Source of the DNA: a virus
Taxonomy: Duplodnaviria; Heunggongvirae; Uroviricota; Caudoviricetes
Length of the DNA stretch: 29,910 nt
Virus record (IMG/VR): IMGVR_UViG_3300045988_123188
Reading direction: 5' to 3' (one strand)
Both the position numbers and the translations under genes were made by a program. Below, one piece after another: positions 7,866 through 24,800 of this stretch (position 1 is its first letter; the number at the start of each line of letters is the position of its first letter). The notes under the pieces were generated by a model. The model ran no database searches, was not told where the DNA came from, and saw only the letters and a list, made by a program, of their open reading frames with translations.

Positions 7866-8075
7866 TGTTCATTCCACGGACAAAAACAGAGAAAGGAAAC
7901 GACAGGGGCCAAAAAGCCCGTTTTCAGCACCTGTCGTTTCCTTTCTTTTCAGGGGGTATTTTAAATAAAAACATTAAGTTACGGCGAAGAAGAACGGAAA
8001 CGCCTTAAACCGGAAAATTTTCATAAATAGCGAAAACCCGCGAGGTCGCCGCCCCGTAACGGCCCGGATCGCCGG
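7866..8075. other. closed cos site (cosB next to Nu1, cosN cohesive-end sequence at ~8043-8054, cosQ side toward 8075)
   Basis: Plus strand carries AGGTCGCCGCCC, the reverse complement of the lambda 12-nt cohesive end GGGCGGCGACCT, flanked by sequence recalled from lambda left end (CGCGGGTTTTCGCTATTTATGAAAATTTTCCGG as reverse complement) and right end (CGTAACGG...CCGGAAAGGACCCGTAAA). Confidence 0.85.
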
Positions 8076-8127
8076 AAAGGACCCGTAAAAATGATAATGG
8101 TTATCATTTTCAATGTAGTCCGGTTTC

Positions 8128-8300
8128 TTCCACCATCGCACCGGACAGGCGACTATGAGGGGACAACGCCGCGCTCCGTTAACGCGGTAAACCCCGGTGT
8201 GTATCGTTTTTGATTATCCCCGCACACTCGCGCAGAGGAGTCTCCCTGTCGGGCTGCGGTCTCTGTTAATGAGGGAATACAGCGACGATACGGCGCATGA
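8128..8300. repeat. direct repeat copy A (~170 bp, ~80% identical to copy B at 9913-10090)
   Basis: Shared blocks CCGGTGTG(T/C)ATCGTTTTTGATTAT, CCGCACACTCGCGCAGAGGAGT, CGTCGGGCT, GGTTAATG, ACGGCGACGAT in the same order and orientation. Confidence 0.7.
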
Positions 8301-9870: not shown

Positions 9871-9888
9871 GTGCGACCACGGTCGCAC
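9871..9888. promoter_or_regulatory. sopC-like palindrome GTGCGACCACGGTCGCAC (putative SopB/ParB centromere site), ~25 bp upstream of the 286-aa gene start
   Basis: 8-bp inverted repeats around a 2-bp AC core; one of five near-identical copies; resembles the F sopC motif TGGGACCACGGTCCCA as I recall it. Confidence 0.6.
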
Positions 9889-9912
9889 GCTCCTGAATAC
9901 ATGCCCTGTTTC

Positions 9913-10090
9913 TTCCACCCTCGCACAGGACTGGCGAGCATGAGGGACAAACCCGCGAATCATTAGTGCGGTAAAAACCCGGTGTGCATCGTTTTTGATT
10001 ATTTCCGCACACTCGCGCAGAGGAGTTCCCCGTCGGGCTACGGTCATGGTTAATGCGGAAATACGGCGACGATGCAGCGCGGTATTTAAT
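9913..10090. repeat. direct repeat copy B (partner of 8128-8300)
   Basis: See copy A; copy B carries a perfect 9-bp inverted repeat TATTTCCGC...GCGGAAATA that is imperfect in copy A, with one compensatory pair. Confidence 0.7.
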
Positions 10091-10108
10091 GTGCGACCAC
10101 GGTCGCAA
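10091..10108. promoter_or_regulatory. sopC-like palindrome GTGCGACCACGGTCGCAA
   Basis: Second copy, directly abutting repeat B. Confidence 0.6.
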
Positions 10109-10127
10109 ACGAGAAACAAAGAGATTT

Positions 10128-10439
10128 TTATGCTACAGAGGAACAAGCTGGCGGGTAATTCAGCGTAGTGAATACCGGCATCTCCATCTTGTATGCGTAA
10201 TGATACTCAGCAGTTGCTCCAGCAGACGCTTTCCAGCCAGGAAGCATCAAAATAGCATCAGCACAACGAAGCATTGCAAAGCAAATATCCATGTATTCAC
10301 GTTGTGTCAAACCATTAGGCAAAGTGGCTGGATTCAAGACAGAGTGACCATGTCGTGACAAACGATCTGCCTCTTTATTAAAGGCGTCACGATTAAAGTT
10401 CTCATATCCCGTCATTGGCCCGGCAATATAAATTTTCAT
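10128..10439 (-). CDS. DUF4406-like / nucleoside 2-deoxyribosyltransferase-like small protein
   Basis: MKIYIAGPMTGYENFNRDAFNKEADRLSRHGHSVLNPATLP... pattern typical of this family by recall; ATG confirmed. Confidence 0.55.
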   Translation of the reverse strand: MKIYIAGPMTGYENFNRDAFNKEADRLSRHGHSVLNPATLPNGLTQREYMDICFAMLRCADAILMLPGWKASAGATAEYHYAYKMEMPVFTTLNYPPACSSVA

Positions 10440-10480
10440 TCACTATCCAACAAATTGAGCTCGTTTTTGATACAGAGGGA

Positions 10481-10918
10481 TTAATTCAGGCATTGCGTCT
10501 TGATGTATTCCTGCAAGTAGTTAACCTGCGCAGTTATCCTGTCGATCCCACTTCGGAGACGGTAATAATTGAGTTCAGCATCTGCTGTAAGTCTTGGGCT
10601 TTCTCCATCGCCCATGCTGCTGGCTCCGGTCGTTGACTTTGCACAGGTGGCGGCGACTTGCAGGCGCTTACGCCCAGCAGAAACATCAGCACGGAGGCTT
10701 TCGATAGTCGCGTTAGCATCAGCAAGCTCCTTTGTATATCTGGCATCGAGTTCTGCTACGTCACGTTGACGCTTCTGCATATCAGCGATTGTGGATGTGG
10801 CTTTATCGCGCTGCTCTTTGTAGGAGATGGCGTTATCACGGTAATGATTAACCGCCCATGACAGGCAGACGATGATGCAGATAACCAGAGCGGAGATAAT
10901 CGCGGTTAACCGACTCAT
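10481..10918 (-). CDS. Rz: spanin inner-membrane subunit Rz (i-spanin)
   Basis: [39 protein letters not shown]... nearly identical N-terminus to lambda Rz by recall; ATG at 10918. Confidence 0.85.
10534..10719 (-). CDS. Rz1: spanin outer-membrane lipoprotein Rz1 (o-spanin), embedded in Rz in the +1 frame
   Basis: [36 protein letters not shown]: signal peptide, lipobox Cys, proline-rich; nested-in-Rz architecture. Confidence 0.6.
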
Positions 10919-11006
10919 GACATCAACACCCCAACGGCCAGAAACCACGGCCACGCATCGTTGCCATTAAATGCGAGCAACGCTGCCATGAAAAAGAAAA
11001 TCATGC

Positions 11007-11507
11007 TCATTGCTGCCCCCACAAACAGACTTCACGCTCAATCTCACGACGAGTCATCAGGCCTTTCCATTGCTTACCGCCAGCAGATATCCAGCGACGT
11101 AGCTGATCACATGCGCCTTTGATATCGCCCTGGTTTATTTTGCGAAGAAGCGTCGATGTTCTGAAATTGCCAGCACCCACGTTGTAAACGAATGAGTAAA
11201 GAGCGCCGCGCGTTGTTTCCGGTATATCGACTTTGATGTACGGGTTAATTTGTCTGGCGACAGTGGCAAGGTCTTTATTCAGGAGAGCTTTGCATTCTGC
11301 TTCGGTATACGTTTTACCTAGCATGATGTCTTTTCCAGTGTGTCCGTAACATACAGTCCATACGCCAACAATATCTTTGTATGGTATGTAACTGACACCT
11401 TCCAGACCATCGTTACCACTTGGGCCAGTGATGAGCATAGACGCTATGGCAATAGCCCCGCCACCAATAGCAGCTGTGACAGCTTTGCGTAATGATGACT
11501 GCATCAT
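11007..11507 (-). CDS. R: SAR endolysin (phage lysozyme, P21 R-type)
   Basis: N-terminal SAR segment [20 protein letters not shown] followed by [25 protein letters not shown]... resembling P21 R as recalled. Confidence 0.85.
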
Positions 11508-11776
11508 ATTTCCTTCGGTGCTCTCTTCCCCAGCTCTCCAATAACCATCGCTGTAGCAGAAAGATTATTGGTATTAGTTTTATCCAATATGTCCTGCAAT
11601 ATCTTCGTGCGCTTCATCTGCTCGCGTTTATTGAGCCGGTATGTAAGCACACCGAGGATAATGCTGAACGCGACACCGATAATGAAGCTCCAATCCTGCA
11701 ATGACAGGCTGGCAAAGAACGCAGCAAGACCAGCGCTACCATAAGGTGCACTTCTGTATAGTTCATCCATCTTCAT
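11504..11776 (-). CDS. S: class II holin / pinholin with MKM dual-start motif
   Basis: Begins MKMDELY (two starts separated by a Lys, as in holin/antiholin pairs), two hydrophobic helices, 4-nt overlap with the endolysin. Confidence 0.65.
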
Positions 11777-11871
11777 ATCTCTTACCTCGCAATAGTTGCT
11801 GAGGTTTCGGCTTGGAAACTATATGGCGAAAATAACCCCTACCAAAAACGGCAGGGGAATATATTCTCCAG

Positions 11872-12948
11872 TTACTCAAATAACTTTTTCACTTCATCAA
11901 CTGTCTGAAGATAACGTTCGCCCTCAATCTCAATACCTATTGCCTGACGTCCTAACTTCAGCGCAGCTTTAATAGTTGAGCCTGATCCCATAAAGAAATC
12001 GGCAACGATATCTCCGGGGCGTGAACTACTCTTTATAATATGTTCCATCATCGCTGCAGGTTTTTCACATGGGTGCTTGCCAGGATAATATTGCACAGGA
12101 GGAAACTCCCATACATCGGTATAAGGTACATCAGCAGTAACATGAAATGGACGGCGTAAATTTTCATACTGAGCCTTCAAATCATCATACTGCTTCTTTA
12201 CTTCCTCATAATGCAATTTCAGATCGCTATAACGCTTTTCATGTTCTGAATAATCAACATTAAAAGGATATGGACACGGGACACCGAGTGAATCTGCCTT
12301 CCTGCGAAATAATTCGCATAGTTTATTAAAATCAATTAATGATGGAAGCCGCCACTGCGAATAAGAAAACCAGTGTGAACACATCTGCTTTCCTGTCGCT
12401 GAATTAATGTCTGCGGCTGATATATCTAACTGACGGCGAGCCAGCGAAAAAGCATCAATTAGTGGAGAAAAAATATTTTTTCTTAAATCTGCACATTTTG
12501 AAGCATAACCTGACTGACCTTTAGCATAACCTGACGCGCCGTAATGCTCTGCAAATAATATTCTTTCAGTAGCAGGAAAATAAGCCCTTAAACTTTCTTT
12601 ATGACAACCGCGCCACATACCACTTGGTTTAGCCCAAATGATATGGTTCAGAACATTGAAACGGTCGCGAGTTAATAATTCAATTTTTGACGCAAGGCGA
12701 GAGCCGGTAAACATATACAGGCTGCCATTAGGGGCCAATATCCGCCAAAATTCTGCCAAAAATTCGTCAATCCACCCCAAAAAGTCAGCATCGCTATCCC
12801 ACTGGTTATCCCATGCGTTAGCCTTTACGCCGAAGTATGGTGGGTCTGTTGCAATCAAATTGACCGAGTTATCAGGGATGGTTTTGATAAATTGCAGAGA
12901 ATCTGCGCAAACGAGTTGTGCGCCATGAATATTAGTGGTTTTGAACAT
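11872..12948 (-). CDS. DNA N6-adenine/N4-cytosine methyltransferase, no partner endonuclease evident
   Basis: DPPY motif (LIATDPPYFG) near the N-terminus and FMGSGST S-adenosylmethionine-binding motif near the C-terminus; ATG at 12948 (MFKTTNIHGAQL...). Confidence 0.8.
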   Translation of the reverse strand: MFKTTNIHGAQLVCADSLQFIKTIPDNSVNLIATDPPYFGVKANAWDNQWDSDADFLGWIDEFLAEFWRILAPNGSLYMFTGSRLASKIELLTRDRFNVLNHIIWAKPSGMWRGCHKESLRAYFPATERILFAEHYGASGYAKGQSGYASKCADLRKNIFSPLIDAFSLARRQLDISAADINSATGKQMCSHWFSYSQWRLPSLIDFNKLCELFRRKADSLGVPCPYPFNVDYSEHEKRYSDLKLHYEEVKKQYDDLKAQYENLRRPFHVTADVPYTDVWEFPPVQYYPGKHPCEKPAAMMEHIIKSSSRPGDIVADFFMGSGSTIKAALKLGRQAIGIEIEGERYLQTVDEVKKLFE

Positions 12949-13083
12949 AGCTATTATTTTTTTGCCTGGGTAAGCTAACCCGGCGATGCGCATCGCGGGT
13001 GGGCTTTAGGTTCAGCCTATAGCTCTGGCATGGGTTGACCGCAGGACAAGCTGCAACTTGTCCTGCGCCCACTTTTCAGGCAC

Positions 13084-13110
13084 AAAAAAACCGCCATAAA
13101 GGCGGCTTGT
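13084..13110 (-). terminator. rho-independent terminator (minus strand) in the late-operon leader, tR'-like
   Basis: Minus strand reads CAAGCCGCCTTTATGGCGGTTTTTTTGTG: GC stem, 6-nt loop, T7 tract. Confidence 0.55.
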
Positions 13111-13144
13111 TGGCTGTTGGGTACAAAAAACCCAACTTAACAAA

Positions 13145-13173
13145 ACAATAACTAAAAACCGTCATTTTGCCAA
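13145..13173 (-). promoter_or_regulatory. candidate sigma70 late promoter (PR'-like): TTGGCA -35, 17-bp spacer, TATTGT -10
   Basis: Read on the minus strand; lies ~40-60 bp upstream of the terminator hairpin, the geometry of lambda PR'/qut/tR'. Confidence 0.35.
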
Positions 13174-13192
13174 GCTTTTTCGTTTTTGTGCT

Positions 13193-13210
13193 GTGCGACC
13201 GTGGTCGCAC
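13193..13210. promoter_or_regulatory. sopC-like palindrome GTGCGACCGTGGTCGCAC (inverted core GT)
   Basis: Third copy, between the small-gene cluster and the late promoter. Confidence 0.6.
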
Positions 13211-13215
13211 AGCTT

Positions 13216-13443
13216 TTAGAAAGTTGCCTGCTTATATTCATCGGTCAAAGAATATCGACCAGATCCGCTACGCTTTGCAACCCCAAAACAGATCATCTGT
13301 TCGATGATAAATTCAACGGCAGCTTGACTCAAAAAACAGGCTTCGCTTAACTCTTTCAGGGAAATGCGTGGGTATCCACGCATAACACATTCCACACTCA
13401 GGGCCGCTTCAGTCATATTTCCACGAATTTCATTAATATTCAT
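13216..13443 (-). CDS. hypothetical small protein (75 aa)
   Basis: Track ORF MNINEIRGNMTEAALSVECVMRGYPRISLKELSEA...; immediately upstream of the late promoter; no recognisable domain. Confidence 0.4.
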   Translation of the reverse strand: MNINEIRGNMTEAALSVECVMRGYPRISLKELSEACFLSQAAVEFIIEQMICFGVAKRSGSGRYSLTDEYKQATF

Positions 13444-13456
13444 AACGCCTCTCTAA

Positions 13457-13696
13457 TCAATCTTGAAACTGGAAATCAACATCAGCCATAAAGCGGTTCA
13501 ACTCAGCCAGTTTTGGCCCCATAGTCCCAACTAAGCGACCAGCCAGTCGGTCTGTTAGGTTGGTACTGTTGAAACCATATTCCTTTTCGAAACGTTCAAC
13601 CTTCTGCCACAACTCATACAGTTCGTTAGCTATCTCCGCAACATCGTCGCGCATTTTTTCGTTACCTTGATAATTCATAATATCCTCCAAATTCAT
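13457..13696 (-). CDS. hypothetical small protein (79 aa)
   Basis: Track ORF MNLEDIMNYQGNEKMRDDVAEIANELYELWQK... Confidence 0.4.
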   Translation of the reverse strand: MNLEDIMNYQGNEKMRDDVAEIANELYELWQKVERFEKEYGFNSTNLTDRLAGRLVGTMGPKLAELNRFMADVDFQFQD

Positions 13697-13843
13697 ATAG
13701 TTAGTGGGTTATTGCCTCTCAATGACACGAACTGTAACTCTGCCAAACGAACACATCCAGTGTTATTTTTCGCTTTTTAGTGAAATTTTTAATTTGCGTT
13801 GTTTTCTTGTTTTGGTGTATTTTATGGATATGGAGGCTATAAT

Positions 13844-14155
13844 ATGTTTAACGTGATAACCCACCCTGCAGCACTGGATGAACTGCTTGAACTACCAGAT
13901 GATTTGCGAGGTCGCATGACCAGATTAATTGAGCGACTGGAGAAAGAAGGCAACAAACTGAAGATGCCCCATAGCCGTGTAATAGGTGGAGGGCTTTTTG
14001 AACTACGAGTAGGGGATAAAAACATCGCAAGAACGCTGTACGCCTACGCGACTGGTAACGAAATTTATCTATTGCATGCATTTGTAAAAAAGACACAGAA
14101 AACACCGGTGAAGGCTATCGAAATCGCCAGAACTCGCCTGAAGGAGATGAACTGA
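13844..14155 (+). CDS. type II toxin, RelE/ParE superfamily, Gp49-like/HigB-like
   Basis: ATG at 13844 with GGAGG SD (MFNVITHPAALDELLELPDDLRGRMTRLIERLEKEG...); ~100 aa; stop overlaps the start of the downstream HTH gene (TGATG). Confidence 0.7.
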   Translation: MFNVITHPAALDELLELPDDLRGRMTRLIERLEKEGNKLKMPHSRVIGGGLFELRVGDKNIARTLYAYATGNEIYLLHAFVKKTQKTPVKAIEIARTRLKEMN

Positions 14156-14442
14156 TGAAAGCGAAAGGCATCCCGTTTAACGAAGTAAAAGAAAAACTCC
14201 TCAACACTCCAGAAGCCGTCAAAGGATATGAAGAGGCCGACAAAGAGCTGGAGATGGTCGAAATGCTATACGAAATGAGGGAAAGAGCAGGTTTAACGAA
14301 ATCAGCTCTGGCTGAACGAATGGGGTTGCGACCGTCAGCCATCAGCCGCCTGGAAAGCAATCCTTTAGGGGCAAGTATGAAAACTTTGGCTAAATATGCT
14401 CATGCCTGCGGCGCAACCATCGATATTCGCGCTGTTTATTAA
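14155..14442 (+). CDS. HTH (XRE-family) antitoxin, HigA-like
   Basis: 95 aa with HTH signature TKSALAERMGLRPSAISRLE; translationally coupled to the toxin; toxin-first order typical of HigBA. Confidence 0.7.
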   Translation: MKAKGIPFNEVKEKLLNTPEAVKGYEEADKELEMVEMLYEMRERAGLTKSALAERMGLRPSAISRLESNPLGASMKTLAKYAHACGATIDIRAVY

Positions 14443-14457
14443 TTAGACTCTTTTACT

Positions 14458-14478
14458 ACCCCGTCCAGAAGGGCGGGG
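14458..14478. terminator. GC-rich hairpin CCCCGTCC-AGAA-GGGCGGGG between converging units (weak T tract)
   Basis: Perfect stem seen in sequence immediately after the antitoxin stop. Confidence 0.35.
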
Positions 14479-14484
14479 TGTGCA

Positions 14485-14688
14485 TCAATGATGTGAACGC
14501 TCAACAGCGATAGTTTTCTGACAATGCTGGGCAATCTCTCGCGACATGTTGATGAGTCGTGAAACCTCACCAATATGTAGGCTGGCTTCTGGAGAAGCCA
14601 GGGTGACGCTAACCAGATCCAGAACGGCGTCAATATCTCTTAAATTTGAATCGAGTTGTTCAAGAGTTGATACGGCTGCTTCAGACAT
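14485..14688 (-). CDS. hypothetical small protein (67 aa)
   Basis: Track ORF with ATG confirmed; weak SD. Confidence 0.35.
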   Translation of the reverse strand: MSEAAVSTLEQLDSNLRDIDAVLDLVSVTLASPEASLHIGEVSRLINMSREIAQHCQKTIAVERSHH

Positions 14689-14770
14689 TAGATCTCATAC
14701 CATTTAACTAAAAAAGGTTATTTATACTGTATAAAATTACAGGTTAAAACTCAAACTTGACGGTCAATTT

Positions 14771-15013
14771 TCAATGAATTAACTGCGTAAACTGCTGTGT
14801 GGCCCGATACTTATGCTCTCTCCCTATGCCACGATCAACTTTCTCAAGAAGTCCAGTACGGACAGCAGAATCAAGCATCCTTTTAACAATTCTGCTATTT
14901 AACCCAACATCAAAAGCAAGCATCGAAGCGAAAACAAACCCATCACCACCATCAGAAAAGCTCTTTTCGCTCCGTTTTCGTATCATTTCAAAAAGCAATG
15001 CCTTTTTATCCAT
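14771..15013 (-). CDS. hypothetical small protein (80 aa), possible winged-helix DNA-binding fold
   Basis: ATG with GGAGGG SD. Confidence 0.45.
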   Translation of the reverse strand: MDKKALLFEMIRKRSEKSFSDGGDGFVFASMLAFDVGLNSRIVKRMLDSAVRTGLLEKVDRGIGREHKYRATQQFTQLIH

Positions 15014-15031
15014 TTATCCCTCCGTGACCAG

Positions 15032-15358
15032 TCACGCTTTGAGCGCAAGTTTCAGCCTCGTGGTTGTAAGGTGGCATGACCCTTCGCCATCAAAAATGCA
15101 TTCTGAAACAGGCATTTTTTGACCACATCGCGGGCAAGTAGTAGATAGCTGCTTCTGCAGCTCCTTATAGTTTTTCCTGATCAGCAAACCAATGACTTCG
15201 TTCTCCGAATATGGAACTCGCCCTGGTCTACGCAATACACAAATTTCCCCCAACATACGTAACTCGTCAGGTTCTAGAATCCACTCCCGTCTTGATGTGC
15301 CTTCCTTCTTCAACCGTTCCCTGCGTCTCCTTTGCCGTTCTGCCGGTGTCAGCGCCAT
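15032..15358 (-). CDS. hypothetical protein (108 aa), Arg-rich N-terminus, CPRCG motif
   Basis: ATG with AGGAGG SD. Confidence 0.5.
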   Translation of the reverse strand: MALTPAERQRRRRERLKKEGTSRREWILEPDELRMLGEICVLRRPGRVPYSENEVIGLLIRKNYKELQKQLSTTCPRCGQKMPVSECIFDGEGSCHLTTTRLKLALKA

Positions 15359-15373
15359 AAATCCTCCTGAAAA

Positions 15374-15826
15374 TTACTTAACCCAATTAACTACACCGCC
15401 AGCGACCACAACCGCCCTTTCACAGTCACGCTCATATCTCAAAGGTTGAAATACACCATCAATAAAATATTTATCTCCACCAAACGCTGCAGGAAGTGAA
15501 ACAGAAAACTGAACATGACCATCCGGAGTTACCGGAGAGTTGCCAGCCTCATACGCCACACGCATCCAGTGCAGAAGCGTTTCAGTGCTCACACAGCCGC
15601 AATCAACATCAATTTTGCCGTGCTGCCGTTCCAGCCATTGCTCAAAAGTTAACTTGTAAGTTTGGCTTACAGGTTCTGCACTATCAGCTTCGCGCCGCTT
15701 CTGTAGCTCTGCTGCCATCGCTCTCACGACTTCAACTGGTGCCCTTGCAGCAAACTCTATGTTGGTGATCAGCTCATTAAGATATTGCTCGCCTGGATAC
15801 TGTTTCTTATCGGTTATAGTGGTCAT
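15374..15826 (-). CDS. hypothetical protein (150 aa)
   Basis: Start at internal ATG (MTTITDKKQYPGEQY...) with AAGGAGAGTGAT SD. Confidence 0.5.
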   Translation of the reverse strand: MTTITDKKQYPGEQYLNELITNIEFAARAPVEVVRAMAAELQKRREADSAEPVSQTYKLTFEQWLERQHGKIDVDCGCVSTETLLHWMRVAYEAGNSPVTPDGHVQFSVSLPAAFGGDKYFIDGVFQPLRYERDCERAVVVAGGVVNWVK

Positions 15827-15827
15827 A

Positions 15828-16214
15828 TCACTCTCCTTTTCCCTGAAGCATAGCAGCGCGGCAGGCATTCCAGCCTCTCACCTCTGCAATAGCGGCAACA
15901 GCATCAACCGCGTACATGCTAAGAGGATTAGGCATTGGTTTTTCTTCCGGTACTACTGGAACGGGTGGAGCGGCGTAGACCTCAATAATTCCATTATCAA
16001 TAGGCCATTCTCCATCCTTGAGGTAGTCACTTGTGCCGTCAACTTGCTGTTCTGCAATGTGGAATGCACCTATTGGTTTTGCTTCCAGCGATGCCAGAGC
16101 AATTCGTGCCAGTTCTTCCGCTTCTTCTGCTGGCAGTACAACGTTGCTACCAGGTCCGTATGTTTCGCGCCACTGTTTGATTGTCAGTAGTCGCTCTTTG
16201 GTAATAGTGGTCAT
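15828..16214 (-). CDS. hypothetical protein (128 aa)
   Basis: MTTITKERLLTIKQW...; ATG with AGGAG SD; 1-nt spacing to the downstream gene. Confidence 0.5.
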   Translation of the reverse strand: MTTITKERLLTIKQWRETYGPGSNVVLPAEEAEELARIALASLEAKPIGAFHIAEQQVDGTSDYLKDGEWPIDNGIIEVYAAPPVPVVPEEKPMPNPLSMYAVDAVAAIAEVRGWNACRAAMLQGKGE

Positions 16215-16224
16215 GTGTTACTCC

Positions 16225-16488
16225 TTAACCCGCAGTGCTTTCAACTGATGAGGGGAACAAAATCCTTTCATCAAATCCGGCATTCATATCATGGACAGCA
16301 ACACACCAATCCATCGACGAACGATTATCAAGAGCCTCCATGATTTCATCCATGCGGCGCAGGTCATACAGGTAAATGCTTTTATCGCCAATGGTGTAAA
16401 AACCAATTTTTTTCGGTGATGGGCAGCGATCAAGAACGTCCTGTAATTCGTTCAACCATGCCCGTTCTTTTTTTGTTAAAGTTGCCAT
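16225..16488 (-). CDS. hypothetical small protein (87 aa)
   Basis: Start at internal ATG (MATLTKKERAW...) preceded by the same AAGGAGAGTGAT SD block as the gene at 15826. Confidence 0.5.
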   Translation of the reverse strand: MATLTKKERAWLNELQDVLDRCPSPKKIGFYTIGDKSIYLYDLRRMDEIMEALDNRSSMDWCVAVHDMNAGFDERILFPSSVESTAG

Positions 16489-16489
16489 A

Positions 16490-17038
16490 TCACTCTCCTT
16501 TGATGCGAATGCCTGTTGCAATGCTGTTTATGATGCTGTCAGTGCATGGGGTAGAAAGCTGGGCATCTCCAGCAATTTTCATGACCTCAACATCTGCATA
16601 TCGAATACCGAGGTGTATCAGACCGGCTATGCCTGACTTAAGCCGAGCATTTTCCATAAATAGAACTTTTGCCCGCTGTTTTTCTGCTTCAAGCTCAACG
16701 CGCAGCTTCCCTACCGTTAGCGCAATATCCTCGTTCTCCTTGTCGCGGGATTTTATGTATTGCTGGTTTCTTTCCCGTTCATCCAGTAGTGCCAGCGCAA
16801 CATTTGGATTAAAGGCAGCAATAAATTCAGCGTTTGCGTAAGCCTGAGCATCTGTTTCAACCAGGCAGTTAACATGACATTCTGCAATCACGCCACCGGG
16901 TTCTCCTTTCCATTTTTGGCAAACAAAAACTCCTGTTAAATTGCCGTGCTGGTTAACAGATGTATGCCCTACGATGTAGCTCCCTTTCGTTGCCTTTTCT
17001 GCCGCATCACGCAGTGCCTGATAATTAATTTCGCTCAC
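16490..17038 (-). CDS. Ead/Ea22-like family protein
   Basis: Contains AEFIAAFNPNVALALLDE plus a coiled-coil, the Ea22-like signature by recall; GTG start with GGAGG SD. Confidence 0.55.
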   Translation of the reverse strand: MSEINYQALRDAAEKATKGSYIVGHTSVNQHGNLTGVFVCQKWKGEPGGVIAECHVNCLVETDAQAYANAEFIAAFNPNVALALLDERERNQQYIKSRDKENEDIALTVGKLRVELEAEKQRAKVLFMENARLKSGIAGLIHLGIRYADVEVMKIAGDAQLSTPCTDSIINSIATGIRIKGE

Positions 17039-17259
17039 TCTTCATCCTCCAAGTCGGCAACGGCGTCCATCACATCAGAACCGCGAATAACCTCAAAAGC
17101 ACGGCAGGCCATTTGAAATACCAGTTGCTCTTGCGGGTGAGGAGACTCCCAATATTTGAAGCCTGGGCGATGCGTGTACCCCATCATTGAATAAAAATCA
17201 CCAGCAAGCTTAATCGCGGCATCGACAAGCTCTCTGTTAGTCATTCTTTTTCCGCTCAC
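17035..17259 (-). CDS. hypothetical small protein (74 aa)
   Basis: GTG start with AGGAGG SD; 4-nt overlap with the downstream gene. Confidence 0.45.
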   Translation of the reverse strand: MSGKRMTNRELVDAAIKLAGDFYSMMGYTHRPGFKYWESPHPQEQLVFQMACRAFEVIRGSDVMDAVADLEDEE

Positions 17260-17551
17260 TGGCTGCCTCCTTTACTGGGCTTTCGAATGTATCAAACTCA
17301 AACAACTTAACTACGTCATCAAACAGGACATAATCGCCATCAGAATCTTCAGTCATGTCAGCGCCACAATCCTGACCGAACGAGTCACAACCATCCATAT
17401 CAAGCTCGTATCGCTTGAGTTTTGCGATATTTGATAAATTCAGCGCCAGTACAGCAAGGTCATAAACCTCATCAGCGGTATACCCGGCACCATGCCCATA
17501 CATTTCAATACGGGATATGATTTCTTCTACACGTTGTTTTGTGATCGTCAT
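17237..17551 (-). CDS. hypothetical acidic protein (104 aa)
   Basis: ATG confirmed; GGAAGGTGAG SD. Confidence 0.45.
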   Translation of the reverse strand: MTITKQRVEEIISRIEMYGHGAGYTADEVYDLAVLALNLSNIAKLKRYELDMDGCDSFGQDCGADMTEDSDGDYVLFDDVVKLFEFDTFESPVKEAASERKKND

Positions 17552-18180
17552 TTTTGCTCACCTTCCTGTTCTTCCAGAAAAATACGCATAGCCTCAAGCA
17601 TCTCTTCGGTATCATACGGAGACAGCTTGTCACGCAGGATGTGTTCAATGCTGTTAATGAACTTGCGGATTGCTTTGCGTTCAATTTCAGCCAGGAAAGC
17701 GTCGGTGGCTGGGGTTTCCGTGAAGTTGTCCTCCCAACCGTAGTACTCCTGACGACAGAAGTTATTAAATTCCTTCTCCGACTGTTTAAGCCCCGCATTC
17801 TCCGCCGCCAGCGCCGTGCGATTACCCTCCAGCTCTGCAATGCGCTGTTTTGCGGCATCCAGTTCAATCGACAATTTTTCCAACTGCTCTTTATGCTTCT
17901 TATATTCCTGATATGCGTGCCAAGACTGACCTTTGCGCACACTATCAGTGATATCAGCAACCTGCTCTGGTGTTAGCGTGGTCAGTGGCTGTGATGGAAA
18001 AATCAGCACTTTCCCGGAATCCCAATCAAAACCAGCGTGAATTGACTGAACCTCAACTGAGGGTGTTGAACCAATGCTGCCAGGCGAATGAATAACGATT
18101 GTTACATCCATATCGCGACGATGGCTGTGGTTGTTGGACAAAATACGATTCACCAACTCAGAAAATTTGGAAAATTTCAT
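17548..18180 (-). CDS. hypothetical protein (210 aa) with central coiled-coil, possibly Ea22-like
   Basis: ATG confirmed; coiled-coil segment LEKLSIELDAAKQRIAELEGNRTALAAENAGLKQSEKE. Confidence 0.45.
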   Translation of the reverse strand: MKFSKFSELVNRILSNNHSHRRDMDVTIVIHSPGSIGSTPSVEVQSIHAGFDWDSGKVLIFPSQPLTTLTPEQVADITDSVRKGQSWHAYQEYKKHKEQLEKLSIELDAAKQRIAELEGNRTALAAENAGLKQSEKEFNNFCRQEYYGWEDNFTETPATDAFLAEIERKAIRKFINSIEHILRDKLSPYDTEEMLEAMRIFLEEQEGEQK

Positions 18181-18467
18181 GCTGATTCCCCTTTCTCTGC
18201 TCTCTCCTGTCGGAACATCACTATCATCAGGTCGCCTTTTGTCGCTATCTTGGCTGTTGTGCCTGGCTCAATGCGGCTAAGTTCAAATGCGTCATAGAAC
18301 GCCTCTAACACTTTCTGGCGTCTTTCCTGTTTGCGGTGCTTTCCCCACTGCTTTAGAAAAACAGAGGCCGCCCACTTCCCCGCACTGAACATGATGTAAA
18401 ACCAACCGAGAAGTGCCAGACCGATATTTAGGGCCGTATCGATCGTTATCGTGGTGTCGATATTCAC
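18177..18467 (-). CDS. small membrane protein (96 aa)
   Basis: GTG start with AGGAGG SD; hydrophobic segment ALNIGLALLGWFYIMFSAGKWAASVFL. Confidence 0.45.
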   Translation of the reverse strand: MNIDTTITIDTALNIGLALLGWFYIMFSAGKWAASVFLKQWGKHRKQERRQKVLEAFYDAFELSRIEPGTTAKIATKGDLMIVMFRQERAEKGESA

Positions 18468-18886
18468 TACGCCACCTCCTGTAAATTTCCCTGATAAAAA
18501 GCCAGCACACGCTGCATAACTTCACTTTTCCGGCAATCGTGACAAATCATGTTCAAGCGCCTGTCGTAACGACGTATTTCTCCGTCAGGTAATGACCAGA
18601 TAAGGTCTGGATCAACCACTACCGATTTCTTCGGCTTTACTCTTGATAGTTTTTTACGGGCGTTTTGCCAGTCCTTGCGTGCTTGTGCAGACAGAAATAT
18701 CCCGGAGCCAGAGATATACAAATCACCACTGGCAGCAAGCTCTCTTGATAAACGACTAACAGCACACCGGCTAATACCAGTTTCATCCGCAAGTTGCCTA
18801 ACCGTTCCTCGTCCATTCAGGCGCACGAGTTCCACAATTTGTTTATTCAGTTCTTCCCTCTGTTCTGGTGTAAAAGCCTTTGCCAT
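18467..18886 (-). CDS. HTH-containing putative DNA-binding protein (139 aa)
   Basis: HTH-like segment TVRQLADETGISRCAVSRLSREL; AGGAG SD; start overlaps the upstream gene stop. Confidence 0.5.
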   Translation of the reverse strand: MAKAFTPEQREELNKQIVELVRLNGRGTVRQLADETGISRCAVSRLSRELAASGDLYISGSGIFLSAQARKDWQNARKKLSRVKPKKSVVVDPDLIWSLPDGEIRRYDRRLNMICHDCRKSEVMQRVLAFYQGNLQEVA

Positions 18887-19485
18887 TACGATTCTCCTTG
18901 CCCTTTTACAAGACGGGAGAAAATTGCGGATACATATTTAGCCTGATGAATAGCATCAGCCAAGGCATTGTGTCGTTCGCCATCAAATGGCATATCTTTT
19001 TTAGGATTAAAACCAATAAACTGACCAAGATTAACGATTGTTCGAACATCCTGATCATTAAAATATTCCCACGGACAGGCTAAGCCAACGCGCTCATAAG
19101 CACCGCGTAAAATTACATTATCGAACGTTGCTCCATTTCCCCATACTTTCAACTTTTTTAAATTACATGCATGGCAAGTAATAAAGTGTGATAATTCAAA
19201 AAGTGCATCCTTAATATCAAGGGCATCATTAGTACAAATAGCGGCTCTGGCTTCCTTGCTCTGTTTCAACCACCATAAAATGGTATCACCATCGGCGATA
19301 CCTCCATTCAACATCGAGCTTCTGAGATTCACTGGCACATAAAAAGTAGGACCTAATTCCTCACTTTCTGGAGAAAAAAACACTGCCCCGATAGAAACAA
19401 TTGGAGCACATGTGTTAGTACCCATTGTTTCAAGATCAATCATTACATCAGACCGTTTCCTGTCGTAAATAATCTGATTAGTCAC
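18886..19485 (-). CDS. DEDDh-type 3'-5' exonuclease (DnaQ/RNase T-like)
   Basis: Exo I motif MIDLETMG, Exo II FDNVIL, Exo III ERHNALADA; GTG start with GAGGAG SD. Confidence 0.7.
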   Translation of the reverse strand: MTNQIIYDRKRSDVMIDLETMGTNTCAPIVSIGAVFFSPESEELGPTFYVPVNLRSSMLNGGIADGDTILWWLKQSKEARAAICTNDALDIKDALFELSHFITCHACNLKKLKVWGNGATFDNVILRGAYERVGLACPWEYFNDQDVRTIVNLGQFIGFNPKKDMPFDGERHNALADAIHQAKYVSAIFSRLVKGQGES

Positions 19486-19508
19486 GAATAATTCTCCTCA
19501 ACGTTTAT

Positions 19509-19712
19509 CTATACCCAAATTTTCTGTTGATATGTTCTGGATGGTTTTGGCGTTCTTTCTGATTCAGGTAAATGAACATAAACGCAATATCCATCACCTA
19601 AAAAATCAGAACGAACAACCAGAACTTTCTTACCACGCCGCCGATAAGTATCTGAAAGACGCTCTGCTTCATCATGCGTCATCGGCCCCTGCTTAAATGG
19701 CGTTATTTTCAT
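19509..19712 (-). CDS. hypothetical small protein (67 aa)
   Basis: Start at internal ATG (MKITPFKQGPMTHDEAERL...); the track ORF N-terminal extension MRPWSH is translation of the palindrome. Confidence 0.4.
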   Translation of the reverse strand: MKITPFKQGPMTHDEAERLSDTYRRRGKKVLVVRSDFLGDGYCVYVHLPESERTPKPSRTYQQKIWV

Positions 19713-19938
19713 TTTCTTGTGCGACCACGGTCGCACCCTCTCTGATTTCCAAGTAACGCTTAATCCAAAGATTTTCTATATGCTTATTACCTGGCTGATT
19801 TGATAAATACCAATCGGCAATTACAGACTGCTTATTACTATCTGGTCGTGTCCTGTAACCACAAGTTGGACACCAGATAACATATTCATTTCTTACCCCC
19901 GAATACCTTAATTCTGGCTTCGACGGTTTCCTGAACAT
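19693..19938 (-). CDS. hypothetical zinc-ribbon-like small protein (81 aa, CLCK...CPTCG)
   Basis: Start at internal ATG (MFRKPSKPELRY...). Confidence 0.4.
   Translation of the reverse strand: MFRKPSKPELRYSGVRNEYVIWCPTCGYRTRPDSNKQSVIADWYLSNQPGNKHIENLWIKRYLEIREGATVVAQENENNAI
19719..19736. promoter_or_regulatory. sopC-like palindrome GTGCGACCACGGTCGCAC overlapping the RBS region of the gene at 19712 and the 3' end of the upstream gene
   Basis: Fourth copy. Confidence 0.6.
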
Positions 19939-19945
19939 AACTTGT

Positions 19946-20656
19946 TTACAAAGGCAGAATGGCACTTCCTGCCCGATGGCGTTTGATGATTTCACTGCGC
20001 TTCTCCGCCGCATTTAATAATGCAGTTCGATTTAAGCTCAGACATCGCGACTTAATTAAAAGCCAGCGTTCTTTATAATCTTGTCTCCAGCTATCAATAG
20101 ATATATTCAGTAGAAAACTCAGATGCCTGTCCTGTTCTCTCTCATCAACTGCCTCAGCACACGTAAGTTCTGATTTAACCTGCTGTGCCGCGTAATAAAT
20201 CAATTTCCGCATGGCTTTTTTCGTGGAGGCCTTCATTTTTTTAAAGCCGCCCCCCGAATGAGCAACCAGAAAATCAAGCCATAACCACTGACAAACAATC
20301 ACATCATTGTTGTAATCAGGCTTGCATCCGTAGCAATAATAAAGCCAGGCTGATTCCTCGTTATTCAACTGACCAATAGCCCTGCGCCAGCTGGCGCTCT
20401 GAAAATCAATATCAGTGAGCAACATTGATGATTGTTTAAATGTTTTCCCCTGGTGGAATCTAACCGGCTCAGCAGGAACGGACACTTCGTATGAGTTATC
20501 ATCCCCCACACTGATTGACCGGACTGGTTTATTGTTAAACCGTCCTGACCTACCGAGACGCATCTGCTCAAGCTGGACCTCCAGAATGCCACGCTGGCGA
20601 TAATGAACATCAGCCAATGCCGTAGAGACGCAGCTGCGTATATACTCAAGCTCCAC
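19946..20656 (-). CDS. hypothetical 236-aa protein first downstream of cro; possible Q-like late antiterminator by position only
   Basis: Track ORF; the Q assignment rests only on my recollection that N15 immB is cB-cro-Q and on the PR'-like leader at ~13.1 kb; no sequence motif recognised. Confidence 0.3.
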   Translation of the reverse strand: MELEYIRSCVSTALADVHYRQRGILEVQLEQMRLGRSGRFNNKPVRSISVGDDNSYEVSVPAEPVRFHQGKTFKQSSMLLTDIDFQSASWRRAIGQLNNEESAWLYYCYGCKPDYNNDVIVCQWLWLDFLVAHSGGGFKKMKASTKKAMRKLIYYAAQQVKSELTCAEAVDEREQDRHLSFLLNISIDSWRQDYKERWLLIKSRCLSLNRTALLNAAEKRSEIIKRHRAGSAILPL

Positions 20657-20867
20657 GCTTACGACTCTCCTTAATCGACTGCTTTACCCGCCGAGTTGTA
20701 AAGTCACTCTTCAGCTTATAAGCAGTACGAACTTCAATATCGCTTTGCCGCAATGAAGGAATCTCTCCAGCGGTTAACCATTGGTAAACAGCTCCGGGTG
20801 TTACACCTACCCCTGCCGCTGCTTTTTCTACACTGCCAAAGTGGCGAATAAGTTCTTCTGGTTTCAT
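20646..20867 (-). CDS. Cro-like HTH repressor
   Basis: Internal ATG (MKPEELIRHFGSVEKAAAGVGVTPGAVYQWLTAGEIP...), 73 aa, HTH; divergent from the repressor gene across an operator-bearing AT-rich region. Confidence 0.65.
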   Translation of the reverse strand: MKPEELIRHFGSVEKAAAGVGVTPGAVYQWLTAGEIPSLRQSDIEVRTAYKLKSDFTTRRVKQSIKESRKRGA

Positions 20868-20897
20868 GTTGTTATTATAAACAATAAACAACAATTA

Positions 20898-20936
20898 AAG
20901 CCAGCTATAATAAATAAATTTTATAGCCAGCTATAA
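20898..20936. promoter_or_regulatory. operator region: palindrome TTATAGC-CA-GCTATAA (~20921-20936) plus half-site copy AGCCAGCTATAA (~20898-20912) between cro and repressor genes
   Basis: Inverted 7-bp half-sites seen directly; position is that of OR/PR/PRM in lambdoid switches. Confidence 0.5.
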
Positions 20937-20958
20937 GAAGATCATTTATGATTACAGT

Positions 20959-21555
20959 ATGAAAACACGAGGCGAACGACTGAAAGCACGCCGTTTAGAG
21001 ATGAAGCTGACGTTGCGAGAAGTTGCTGAGGCTGTCGATATCTCTATAGCAGGCGTCCAAAACTTAGAACGTGGCGACGTAATGCCGTCACTGGAGATAG
21101 GTATTGCCCTGGCTAAGTGCTTACGCAAGCCAGTGCATTGGGTGCTATATGGGACAGAATATGACCCTGACCGCATTCCTGTTATTGGCACAACTGAAAG
21201 TGGGCCGGATGAAGAGTGGAAGCCGGGACAGGTTCCAAATACTGAGCGATTCCTGCCATTCATCAGCCAGCGCAATACTGTGTATGCGTTAACTATCAGC
21301 AATCTTACGCAGGGAAACTATCAGCCAGGCGATTTTCTCCTGGTCGATTCTGCGCTGGAACTGGTCCCCGGCGAGGATGTTCTGGTTCGTGATACTGCAG
21401 GAAATATCACTATCCAGCGCCTGGCCCGTTTTGATGATGAAAATTACTATCTGGATGGAACAAACTCACAACGCGCCATCTTCAGGAAAAGCGATCTTGA
21501 ATTTGTTCACCAAATAGTCGGAACGATCAAATCATTCATGGTTGAGGGTAGATGA
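20959..21555 (+). CDS. prophage repressor, CI/CB-like (N-terminal XRE HTH plus C-terminal S24/LexA-like fold)
   Basis: HTH LTLREVAEAVDISIAGVQNLERG; C-terminal region GDFLLVDSALELVPGEDVLVRD resembles the lambda CI C-terminal domain; ATG has no SD, suggesting a leaderless mRNA as for lambda cI from PRM. Confidence 0.7.
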   Translation: MKTRGERLKARRLEMKLTLREVAEAVDISIAGVQNLERGDVMPSLEIGIALAKCLRKPVHWVLYGTEYDPDRIPVIGTTESGPDEEWKPGQVPNTERFLPFISQRNTVYALTISNLTQGNYQPGDFLLVDSALELVPGEDVLVRDTAGNITIQRLARFDDENYYLDGTNSQRAIFRKSDLEFVHQIVGTIKSFMVEGR

Positions 21556-21656
21556 CTTAATACGGGGTTTATTGTTTGCTGTAAATCTGGTTTAATGCAG
21601 GGCATATGTTCTGTGGGTTGACTCAGGTTACAGCAGCAGAAAAAAGACGAAAAAAA

Positions 21657-21686
21657 ACCCGAGTCGGCAAACTCGGGTCCTTTTCA
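21657..21686. terminator. bidirectional rho-independent terminator ACCCGAGT-CGGCAA-ACTCGGGT flanked by A8 and TTTT
   Basis: Perfect 8-bp stem with T/A tracts on both sides; lies between the repressor gene and repA. Confidence 0.55.
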
Positions 21687-21800
21687 GGAAGCAGCCACAA
21701 CAACGCGACGGATTCCGTCAATTCAAGATGTGTTTATTGTGGCTGCTCCTGCGGATTTTTTCAACCCGAAAAAACATAATTCGCATGGAATGGCTAAAAA

Positions 21801-24800
21801 ATGACATTAAACGATTTCTATGCGGATCGCTTTGGCAGCGATCCGTTCTCGCTAATTGAAGCAGCACGGGATGAACTAACCGAGCTGGCACAGATGGCTG
21901 GTATCAACTGGCCTGCCTGTTCCGACAACATCCAACTCAACCCTCGCGGGGGGGTTGAGCGTTACTCTTCATACAATAAAACATCTCCAGAAGCTCTCGA
22001 AAAGAGCCTGAAAGGACGCGTAGAAATTTACTCCCGGCTGGAACACAGCAAAGGGATTGATTACCCGTTCATTAACTTCGTCCATAAAGGCAGCGATGCT
22101 GGCTCATGGAGCGGTTTCTCCTTCCTGTTTTCTGAATATCGCCGTGAGCAACAACGGAATAATGCGACCGTGGTCGCACAACCGGAAGAAGAACGGGAAA
22201 GAATAGAACGTCAGGCCGAAGCACGTCGTCGCCGTGAAGAACAAAAACGAATTAATGACCTGAAAAACAACCAAATGGACCATGAACGTTTGCTGGGATG
22301 GCTGGCATTCCACAGCGCGTGGGAACATGCTCCGGCTGAAGACGGCTCATGGCCATATGCGATTAAAAAAGGTATTCGTGACGTTTTTAGTTCATGTGAT
22401 GTGCGTCGCGTGACCAGTCACGACAGTGCGAAATGGAGTCGGGGACCAACCACATATATGGCTATCCCTCTGGCTCACCTGGACGGTCGTTACGATGGTC
22501 GTATTGTGGGTTGGCAGCGAATCGACAAACAAGGTGGGAAATACCAGACCAGCGCAGTAACCAGCGGCGATTTCGTCGGTGCCTGCTTTGTTATCGGTGA
22601 GCTGAAAGGGGCGCAAAACATCGCTGTTACAGAAGGTTTTGCTACTGGTGCATCCATCTGGCTTGCCACGAAAAAAGATAAACGCTTTGACGCTGTGGTT
22701 GTCGCTGTATCCGCTAACAACATGGTTCATGTTGTGGAACAACTGGTAAACATGTACCCGGCGGTAAAAATCACCTGCGCACTGGATAATGACCGGAAAT
22801 CTGCCACAGAAGGAAAAGGGAATACCGGCCTGCGGACTGGCTATGAAATCTTATCGAAATTCAACGATGTCCGCTGCGTCTATCCAACTTTTGAAGACGA
22901 TCCGCAAATGGAGTGCAGTGACTTCAACGACCTGCACAAACTACGTGGACTTCGTGAAACAGCACGTCAACTATTTGCAACAGCAAACCGCCTGAAAACC
23001 GGTACTGATTTGCTATCTCTGACGCTCAACCGCCTGAAGACAATTAAGCGGGATAACCGTCGTACTTTTGCCAAAGAGCTGCTGAGAGCGGTGGATATTG
23101 GCATGCTAACCTGCCCGGTTCCTAACAGTCCGTCAGATTTATTTAACATGTTCTGCATCGTTCTGCGTGAAATGGGACTGGAAAATATCTATCGCGCTAC
23201 GGTAAAAGACCACATTGCCCGTCGCCTGAATAAAAAGTGCCGTATTGCCCAGGCTCCGCGCTCTTTCAGCGAACGCATAACTGATCCCAATAAACGCCCT
23301 CAACATATCACCTATAAGCGTTTTGAAACTTCGGTAATGACCGATGATCTCCTGAAGTACGTGCAATCACTACAGGGGATAGTCATCGTCCGTGCTGGTA
23401 TGGGTTCCGGCAAATCTACTGGATTGTTACGACCGTTAATGCATAGCTCAGAACGTGGTATCTCTGTTGCTCACCGTGTCTCCCTTATTGGTGGCCTGTG
23501 GGAAATGATGACAGAAGGAAAAGGTGTAAAAGCCGATATCCTGCACTATCAGGACCCTGGCTATCAGGAAATGGCTCCATACGCCAGTAAACTGACCATC
23601 TGCATAAACTCGATTGTTAAAAACTGCTGGCAACCGTTGATGCGCCAGCACGACTATTTTGGCTTTGACGAGGCCACACAAGGGCTACGTGCCGTTCTTT
23701 CCGGTCGGGCTATGGAAAACCCAGTGGCTGTATTCAATACGCTAATTGACGCGCTGGCCAGAACGGAACAACACCCAATAATGGTGGATGCTGATGCGAA
23801 CGATCTGCTGGTTGACCTGGCTGAACTGGCTATGAAACGCCGTGAAGAACTAGGTTTACCGGCATGGCTGCAGATCCACGTAATTGAATTACCTGTTGAT
23901 GTTCGCAACCGCGAAACAGGTGAGCCAATCCGGGTTTTTTATACAGAAAAAGATCGCATCATGACCGAGGTGGTGAAAGCTGTATCGGATGGCGAAAAAA
24001 TCATGTTGGCCACCGACAGCTCCACCTTTGCAGAAGATGTGACAGCCACCCTGAGAATGCATTTTCCTGGTAAGAAATTTCTGTGTGTAAACCAGAAAAA
24101 CAAACCAGAGCCAGAAGTTGAAGCATTTACCAATCAACCGAAAAAGATGGTCAAAAAATACGACGGCCTGATTTATAGCCCGTCTATTTCATCCGGCGTG
24201 TCGATTGAGCAAAAACATTTTGACCGTCATTTCGGCATGTTCTGTGGTGAAGTTGTACCCAGCGACGCAGTGCAAATGCTACGCCGCGACCGTACAGCAA
24301 AAGAATTTATTATCGGCTTTGATAAAGCTCGTGCAAAACGTGAAACTGACCCGCAAAAAATAGAACGAGCATTCGCCCAGGCATTGCTTGCTACCGCAGG
24401 TATGAACGGTGAACTTACGGATGTCGTTTTCGATGGCGACCGTATATCAATGGGGGTGGCCAATACCGACTTTACCAGGATGAAAATTAAAGCAGCCGCA
24501 ATTGAAGCGACTGCGCGTAACGACTACGCCAGCAACATGATCTGCATCATGCACAGCGACGGTTATAAGGTATCACCGCTGGCCACCGATTATGCTGCGA
24601 ATGATATCGGTAAAGATCTGCGTAAAGAAGCGCGGGATATTGTGTGGGAACAGACACTGGATCTGCACCTCAATACAGAAACTCCACAAGAATCAGAGCG
24701 TGAAAAACTGCTAAAAAAACGCGCGCTGACGCTTGAAGAACAGGCAAAACTTGTCCGCTGGGATATTGAAAACGAACTGAAACTACCGGTTGAAGAAGGC

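Follow-up and report, generated by a model that had tools for sequence, protein, structure and literature searches.

Five dispersed palindromes in an N15-like phage-plasmid of E. coli are predicted SopB partition sites

A viral DNA stretch of 29,910 nucleotides (the window, which was analysed as a whole) carries an 18-bp palindrome that recurs at widely separated places, which raises the question of what this repeat serves. The first-pass annotation had described five dispersed palindromes, and this was borne out. When the window was searched with GTGCGACCNNGGTCGCAC, allowing at most two mismatches, the motif GTGCGACC-NN-GGTCGCAC was found five times, starting at positions 9871, 10091, 13193, 19719 and 22162. 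No copy is expected by chance, and none of 100 dinucleotide-preserving shuffles contained any match. Three copies are perfect 18-mers (9871-9888, 13193-13210 and 19719-19736), and the remaining two carry a single outer-base change, to A at the final base of the site at 10091-10108 and to A at the initial base of the site at 22162-22179. The latter had been reported to start at 22163; the site is real, but this is the start of its perfect 16-bp core and not of the site itself. Rescanning the window with up to four mismatches did not reveal a sixth site, and the 8-bp half-sites did not occur in the window outside the five copies. The distance between sites ranges from 220 to 6500 bp. In a scan of 185,579 species genomes we found mostly single matches in unrelated GC-rich bacteria, at about the number that chance would give for 16 fixed bases in 596 Gb, while clustering of the motif was specific to N15-like contigs.

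The window itself belongs to an N15-like linear phage-plasmid of E. coli and is 97-98% identical to PhiR46_1 and pCAVP367-48; its best match reached 98.4-98.6% identity, and the collections of phages, plasmids and complete E. coli genomes contained no identical sequence. A protelomerase gene with four Pfam TelK/ResT domains is located at 27875..29788 on the minus strand. This enzyme is the hallmark of the linear phage-plasmid lifestyle, which needs active partition. By comparison with PhiR46_1, about 80 nt are missing between the end of the window and the telomere, and the position of the lambda-type cosN (GGGCGGCGACCT; 8043..8054, minus strand) indicates that the window is in the plasmid-prophage permutation. 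A repA-type replicase gene of 1331 aa (21801..25796, plus strand) encodes Pfam Toprim and origin-binding helicase domains, and in pCAVP367-48 the homologous product is listed as a CyRepA1 family plasmid replication protein. The Q antiterminator gene is found at 19946..20656 on the minus strand (Pfam Phage_antiter_Q, E-value 4e-84).

The same 18-mer is present four times in N15, as the centromere sites IR1-IR4 (Ravin & Lane 1999; Grigoriev & Lobocka 2001); the window sites have the identical 16-bp core TGCGACC-NN-GGTCGCA and mostly keep the outer G/C. The N15 centromere oligonucleotides IR1-IR4 have been printed (PMC7205306, Table 4), and the window sites match them base for base; N15 SopB forms foci on these sequences (PMC7205306). 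The layout in N15 is likewise dispersed and unclustered, and the positions are homologous: one in repA, one past Q, one 19-20 nt ahead of the late-promoter -35, and one close to where the lysis/accessory block ends. We also found the 18-mer at the same four positions in phiKO2 of Klebsiella oxytoca (Casjens et al. 2004), whose GenBank record (NC_005857) labels all four as putative plasmid partitioning sites. The elements differ in other respects. The DNA around the sites is about 75% identical to N15 in the repA-cB-Q block only, the late genes of the window are lambda-like, and N15 gene 58, a cytosine methylase located ahead of IR4 there, is missing from the window. phiKO2 in turn has another host, another late-gene module and a single IR4. 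Together, these comparisons make it highly probable that the five palindromes are the dispersed partition (centromere) sites of an N15-like linear phage-plasmid, served by SopAB.

The F plasmid sopC belongs to the same partition family (type Ia SopA/SopB), and the central AC/GT dinucleotide predominates in both F sopC and the window sites. It had been claimed that the window sites differ from F by one base per half-site, which is correct for all five when compared with the F sopC core TGGGACCNNGGTCCCA; the same difference of one nucleotide per half-site separates the N15 and F sites (PMC2910045). At half-site position 4, F sopC has G, whereas every half-site of the window has C and none has G. 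F sopC consists of tandem sites clustered downstream of sopB, in 10 copies (PMC7205306) with a repeat length of 43 bp (PMC2910045). We therefore rejected an F-type sopC, with tandem 43-bp repeats containing TGGGACCACGGTCCCA beside sopB, in view of the wide spacing of the window sites and the C at position 4. F SopB works only with its own centromere and not with the N15 sites (PMC7205306).

The sopA and sopB genes had been predicted to lie outside the window, and this is supported by both the window and its relatives. Neither gene is present in the window, and the complete replicons PhiR46_1 and pCAVP367-48 each contain exactly these five sites together with a sopA-parB operon by the other telomere. 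From these near-identical relatives we infer that the replicon of the window also encodes SopAB. Using the SopB proteins of the relatives as a stand-in for that of the window replicon, we compared the specificity helix. These proteins are 73% identical to N15 SopB, in which residues 179-200 carry specificity (PMC2910045). The recognition helix reads G(V/I)DRNII(S/T)RCIN in the relatives, GIDRNIVNRCMN in N15 and NISRKIITRCIN in F. Around the base-contacting arginine, the relatives share D-R-N with N15, whereas F has S-R-K.

The first predicted SopB site, equivalent to IR1 (ATGCGACCGTGGTCGCAC), lies at 22162..22179 inside the repA coding sequence, and its flanks are homologous to those of N15 IR1 at 33479 and of the phiKO2 site at 37905. 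The codon wobble positions of repA are frozen within IR1 and variable in the flanks. In alignments of 14-29 distinct relatives, 15 of the 18 columns were invariant within the IR. Of the flanking columns, about half were invariant for IR1 and IR2, and about 15% for IR3. The palindromes could in principle act as RNA hairpins (intrinsic terminators or attenuators) instead of protein-binding sites, and the N15 record indeed annotates the IR4 region (45560-45584) as a putative rho-independent terminator stem-loop. A terminator scan scored a weak terminator-like hairpin at IR4b on the minus strand. This was the only site flagged as a candidate rho-independent terminator; IR2 and IR3 were not flagged by the terminator scans, and reading the flanks by eye revealed no T-run after IR1, IR2, IR3 or IR4a, so that only one of the five sites has one. 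Two sites moreover lie within coding sequences, those of repA and of a small ORF. All sites have the same 16-bp sequence without compensatory variation in the stem, which points to a sequence-specific protein site, and among the relatives we saw no stem variants in which pairing was kept while the sequence had changed. A hairpin function in place of protein binding is therefore highly improbable. A terminator role of IR4b could coexist with SopB binding as a secondary property.

Two further predicted SopB sites, IR2 and IR3, lie near Q and the late promoter, respectively. The stop codon of Q is followed 210 nt downstream by the IR2-equivalent site (19719..19736), which aligns with N15 35930 and phiKO2 40345. 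It falls within the 3′-terminal part of a small conserved minus-strand ORF (19693-19938), and the next small ORF has its ATG (19712) 7 nt downstream of the site; no Pfam family was found for either ORF. The IR3-equivalent site (13193..13210) is positioned 19 nt upstream of the -35 of a p52-like late promoter (13145..13173, minus strand), which the promoter scan identified as TTGGCA and TATTGT separated by a 17-nt spacer. IR3 aligns with N15 IR3/p52 and with the phiKO2 site, the gap to the -35 being 19-20 nt in all three, and the promoter lines up with the -35/-10 elements annotated in N15 (41162/41185) and in phiKO2. Between this promoter and the methylase gene (11872-12993), the terminator scan found an intrinsic terminator at 13088..13108 on the minus strand. 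It is kept in N15 and phiKO2 and is presumably the target of Q antitermination.

The fourth position follows the DUF4406 gene (10128-10439, minus strand; Pfam). IR4a (GTGCGACCACGGTCGCAA; 10091..10108) is a predicted SopB site 20 nt past the stop codon of this gene, which is the position of phiKO2 IR4, as the latter also directly follows a DUF4406-family gene. The fifth predicted SopB site, IR4b (9871..9888), lies 24 nt ahead of the start codon (ATG, 9847) of a gene for a 286-aa protein, for which no Pfam family was found.

With all five sites placed, we could examine the suggestion that SopB represses neighbouring promoters. One site had been located in repA, which is correct, and the other four in promoter- or RBS-proximal positions, which is only partly right. 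The start codons downstream of IR2 and IR4b are indeed close. However, positions 9847 and 19712, which had been taken for promoters, are these start codons, and a consensus scan found no sigma-70-like promoter beside either. Spreading of SopB from its sites might still silence accessory and late genes next to them during lysogeny. A weak promoter some 50 bp away from an artificial 4xIR array is silenced when N15 SopB is induced (PMC7205306), and IR3 is 19 nt from the late-promoter -35. This array with induced SopB is the sole setting in which N15 SopB silencing has been demonstrated (PMC7205306), whereas the natural sites are single or paired. The promoter scan showed no promoter-like site adjoining IR2, IR4a or IR4b, leaving the late promoter downstream of IR3 as the sole promoter beside a site, and the terminator that follows this promoter already keeps the late operon off. 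In N15, one study reports that the Sop system facilitates late gene expression (Ravin et al. 2008, as cited in PMC11652158). IR2 and IR3 reportedly promote late transcription there, and this natural effect speaks against silencing. The proposed repression is unsupported as it was stated, and we consider silencing of adjacent genes unlikely.

The window differs from N15 in having five sites instead of four, since the fourth position is a doublet in which IR4a and IR4b lie 220 bp apart around a non-coding spacer. This 202-bp spacer (9889..10090) is non-coding and repeats the cos-proximal segment 8120-8297 in degenerate form. It was rejected as a gene, as stop codons occur in every reading frame, and as a structured RNA, as it matched no Rfam family and folded without excess stability (z of -0.3 and -0.07). 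We also observed that sites are locally duplicated in different lineages.

The first-pass annotation had asked whether the motif occurs at similar density in unrelated E. coli chromosomes. It is present in some of them, but only within prophage modules homologous to the window region. Of 5426 complete E. coli genomes, 40 matched a junction query, which hit 27 chromosomal places, and the spacer-plus-IR unit was full-length in 15 genomes. A lambdoid prophage integrated at dusA carries the IR4 doublet, a second chromosomal prophage has just one IR, bordered by the outer flanks of the doublet, and in other phage contigs the spacer-plus-IR unit lies 83 nt upstream of cosN. A new side result is that about 1% of complete E. 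coli genomes carry the fourth-position site in an integrated lambdoid prophage. Because this site also travels in integrated prophages, it might have a Sop-independent function in lambdoid late regions or be a mosaic recombination joint, and the finding of doublet, single IR and spacer-plus-IR unit in other prophages or phage contigs fits such a role. The integrated prophages, however, carry IR4-type sites only, always in DNA that is 93-99% identical to the phage-plasmid late region. IR1-IR3 are confined to N15-like replicons, and recent module exchange explains the prophage sites without a new function. Either reading is thus quite improbable. We give equally little weight to the related idea that the fourth-position site, riding late-gene modules into prophages, could be a chromosome-borne decoy centromere there, and that mosaic recombination may use the 18-bp IRs as joints, which would account for the doublet. 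No sopAB was found in the stretch examined of the IR4-carrying integrated prophages, and the presence of IR4-type sites in such prophages means that a site alone is no proof of partition function.

The reading of the five palindromes as dispersed N15-type, sopC-like centromeres, which had also been proposed in the first-pass annotation, is supported by sequence identity with the validated N15 sites, by positional homology, by constraint at the DNA level, and by sopAB with an N15-type helix in near-identical replicons. For the element of the window, we infer binding, partition and a regulatory role from these comparisons. A dimer of the ParB-family protein SopB would bind each 16-18-bp inverted repeat via its helix-turn-helix, SopB and SopA presumably being encoded beyond the window, at the far end of the replicon. 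Bound SopB would nucleate partition complexes, which SopA, a Walker-type ATPase, would distribute to the daughter cells, and the low-copy linear prophage would thereby be kept stable. By homology with N15, IR2 after Q and IR3 before the late promoter probably also aid late transcription in lytic growth, and SopB-mediated pairing of the two sites would bring the distant Q gene region to the late promoter.

Apart from the doubled site, which is out of the ordinary, the sites are the already known N15 design in a close E. coli relative. There is little new biology in this; the N15-like phage-plasmids of E. coli, which are now common among clinical and animal isolates, keep the dispersed-centromere design of N15 together with its connection to Q and the late promoter. 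The exact 18-bp sequence provides a marker for annotation, as the records of PhiR46_1 and pCAVP367-48 leave the sites unmarked. If the decoy centromere were true, it might exert partition incompatibility against incoming N15-like phage-plasmids, or allow their SopB to act on a resident prophage. The local duplication of sites in different lineages and the occurrence of one site type in integrated prophages are small leads for studies of plasmid incompatibility and phage mosaicism.

When searching the window (29,910 bp) for the pattern GTGCGACCNNGGTCGCAC, we found five matches, which are named here after the N15 sites IR1-IR4. Three of them are perfect: IR4b (9871-9888), followed after 24 nt by the ATG of a 286-aa gene to which no function was assigned, IR3 (13193-13210), 19 nt upstream of the late-promoter -35, and IR2 (19719-19736), 210 nt downstream of the stop codon of the antiterminator gene Q. 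The other two each carry one outermost-base change: IR4a (10091-10108), 220 bp from IR4b, lies 20 nt after the DUF4406 gene, as does IR4 of phiKO2, and IR1 (22162-22179) lies within repA. These are the positions listed in the first-pass annotation, in which 22163 marks the point where the last copy's perfect 16-bp core begins; the difference of one base per half-site from the F site, stated there, was seen at all five sites. The pattern was absent from 100 dinucleotide-preserving shuffles of the window, and in the window itself no extra site appeared when the search was loosened to four mismatches, nor were 8-bp half-sites present outside the five sites.

The same 18-mer occurs four times in N15, at 33479 inside repA (gene 37), 35930 after Q (gene 40), 41124, which is 20 nt before the annotated late-promoter -35, and 45561 between genes 58 and 59. 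These copies are the N15 centromere sites IR1-IR4, whose sequences are given in Table 4 of PMC7205306, where N15 SopB formed foci on an array of them. N15 is a known example of dispersed centromere-like sites (PMC3235114). Its SopB sites are one nucleotide (position 4/4′) per half-site apart from those of F, and the specificity of N15 SopB is carried by residues 179-200 (PMC2910045). In the phiKO2 GenBank record, the four homologous positions are labelled "putative plasmid partitioning site", and homology to the N15 and phiKO2 flanks can be recognised around IR1, IR2 and IR3 in the window.

The window encodes a four-domain protelomerase (27875-29788, minus strand), a RepA-type primase/helicase of 1331 aa (21801-25796), the Q antiterminator (19946-20656, minus strand), a cB-like repressor, an N6/N4 DNA methylase and a DUF4406 protein, together with lambda-type head genes and the lambda cosN GGGCGGCGACCT at 8043-8054. 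Its permutation is that of the plasmid prophage, and it ends ~80 nt short of the telomere. Identity to the linear E. coli phage-plasmids PhiR46_1, YDC107_1 and pCAVP367-48 is 97-98% over most of the length, and identity to N15 and phiKO2 is ~75% in the repA-cB-Q block only; no identical record was present in the collections searched. The interval from cosN to the start of terS holds an inverted repeat of 26 nt (88% complementary, 7890-7946), a probable part of cosB. Rfam matches above the gathering score were obtained for isrK (27036-27109, plus strand, 62.5 bits) and C4 antisense RNA (27135-27221, plus strand, 73.6 bits) in the stretch that separates the protelomerase from the repA-side accessory genes, presumably an N15/P1-type anti-immunity control RNA region. 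In YDC107_1 (L125, CP025712.1) the telN-repA arm is apparently duplicated in inverted orientation at 34650-46701, repeating protelomerase, BRO, gp31 and repA fragments with an extra IR1 copy at 45080, which suggests that the assembly read through the hairpin telomere.

The partition genes sopA and sopB are absent from the window. They would lie outside it, as the first-pass annotation predicted. In the complete relatives PhiR46_1 (46,290 bp) and pCAVP367-48 (47,626 bp) these five sites, and no others, are present, each of them in the arm that the window covers, and the other telomere is flanked by a sopA-parB operon. Their SopB is 73% identical to that of N15. The recognition helix reads (V/I)DRNII(S/T)RCIN in the relatives, IDRNIVNRCMN in N15 and ISRKIITRCIN in F, indicating that the relatives' SopB shares with N15 the D-R-N around the base-contacting arginine, in agreement with the N15-type C at position 4 of the sites.

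We then compared homologous regions from a viral-contig scan and reference genomes, with 14-29 distinct sequences for each site. Of the 18 IR columns, 15 do not vary, and changes are confined to the outermost base and the dinucleotide at the centre. AC or GT makes up this dinucleotide in 188 of the 207 instances. In the flanks, invariant columns account for about half of the total around IR1 and IR2, and for ~15% around IR3. The repA flanks of IR1 vary every third base, as coding sequence does, whereas the wobble positions inside IR1 are frozen. A similar motif density in unrelated E. coli DNA, raised earlier as an argument against the sites, was not found: the motif occurs in ~1% of complete E. 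coli genomes, in homologous phage modules only. Scanning 596 Gb of species genomes gave mostly singletons in GC-rich, unrelated bacteria, in a number close to the chance expectation for 16 fixed bases.

The fourth site is doubled in the window. IR4b and IR4a are separated by a 202-bp spacer, a degenerate copy (~86-92% identity) of a cos-adjacent segment; the two form a direct repeat of ~175 bp (8120-8297 and 9905-10082, ~88-92% identical). Neither repeat copy holds an open frame, with stops in all frames, so the spacer was rejected as a gene; as a structured RNA it was rejected for lack of an Rfam match or excess RNA structure. The doublet junction was found in 40 of 5426 complete E. coli genomes, in 27 chromosomal places and 16 on plasmids. 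A dusA-integrated lambdoid prophage in the NZ_OY757949 chromosome (L126 21872-22109) has a doublet of perfect sites, and another lambdoid prophage, in the NZ_CP148507 chromosome (L127 14202-14219), has a single perfect IR with the outer flanks of the doublet. The late-region DNA around both is 95-98% identical to the window, and no sopAB was seen in the stretches examined. Further lambdoid contigs, namely L035 (2039-2056), L045, L010, L030, L061, L089 and L051, carry a spacer-like segment and one IR 83 nt upstream of cosN, without the DUF4406 and 286-aa genes and with no second IR nearby; this unit is full-length in 15 of the 5426 genomes. The IR4-type site thus travels with late-region modules into integrated prophages, for which mosaic exchange between late regions of lambda-like type is the simplest reading; the site might also have a function of its own, although nothing supports this. 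Other N15-like contigs have IR3 pairs spaced by 47 bp shortly before the late-promoter -35 (L011 1784/1831, L080 96/143, L081 5554/5601) or an IR4 pair with 181-bp spacing (L053 8642/8823). Sites thus multiply locally and repeatedly in different lineages.

The late promoter (TTGGCA, 17-nt spacer, TATTGT; 13173-13145, minus strand) is followed by an intrinsic terminator (13108-13088) and then the methylase gene. The order of IR3, promoter and terminator is that annotated in N15 and phiKO2, and the IR-to-(-35) spacing is 19-20 nt in all three. IR2 lies at two overlapping minus-strand ORFs: the 3′ end of one (19693-19938; 81 aa, zinc-ribbon-like) runs through the site, encoding ...EGATVVAQ..., and the next (19509-19712; 67 aa) has its ATG 7 nt after it. 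Both are kept in N15 and phiKO2, where the substitutions follow a codon-like pattern, and neither matches a Pfam family; they are not annotated in RefSeq N15 and appear as 'orf QD1' in older records.

The shared 18-mer, the homologous positions and the relatives' sopA-parB support the reading of the five sites as N15-type centromere sites. SopB dimers would bind every IR, and SopA would then segregate the SopB-IR complexes; this known N15 mechanism is the best-supported account. By homology with N15, IR2 and IR3 probably also aid Q-dependent late transcription. Such Sop-linked aid was reportedly described by Ravin, Rech and Lane in 2008 (title cited in PMC11652158). In their study, lysis is said to have been delayed in ir2 or ir3 mutants and expression from the late promoter p52 raised by IR3, IR2, Q and SopAB together. 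The first-pass annotation had also suggested that SopB at the sites may silence adjacent genes, placing one site in repA, which is correct, and the others near promoters or ribosome-binding sites. Our promoter scans found none beside IR2, IR4a or IR4b, and of the natural sites just one adjoins a promoter, the late promoter, on which the effect documented is a positive one. In PMC7205306, a weak promoter lying 50 bp from an artificial 4xIR array was silenced by induced N15 SopB, but for the natural sites silencing, although possible, is unsupported and runs somewhat counter to the N15 literature. The dispersed N15-type sites are thus of a well-described kind, of which the doubled fourth site is a minor variant.
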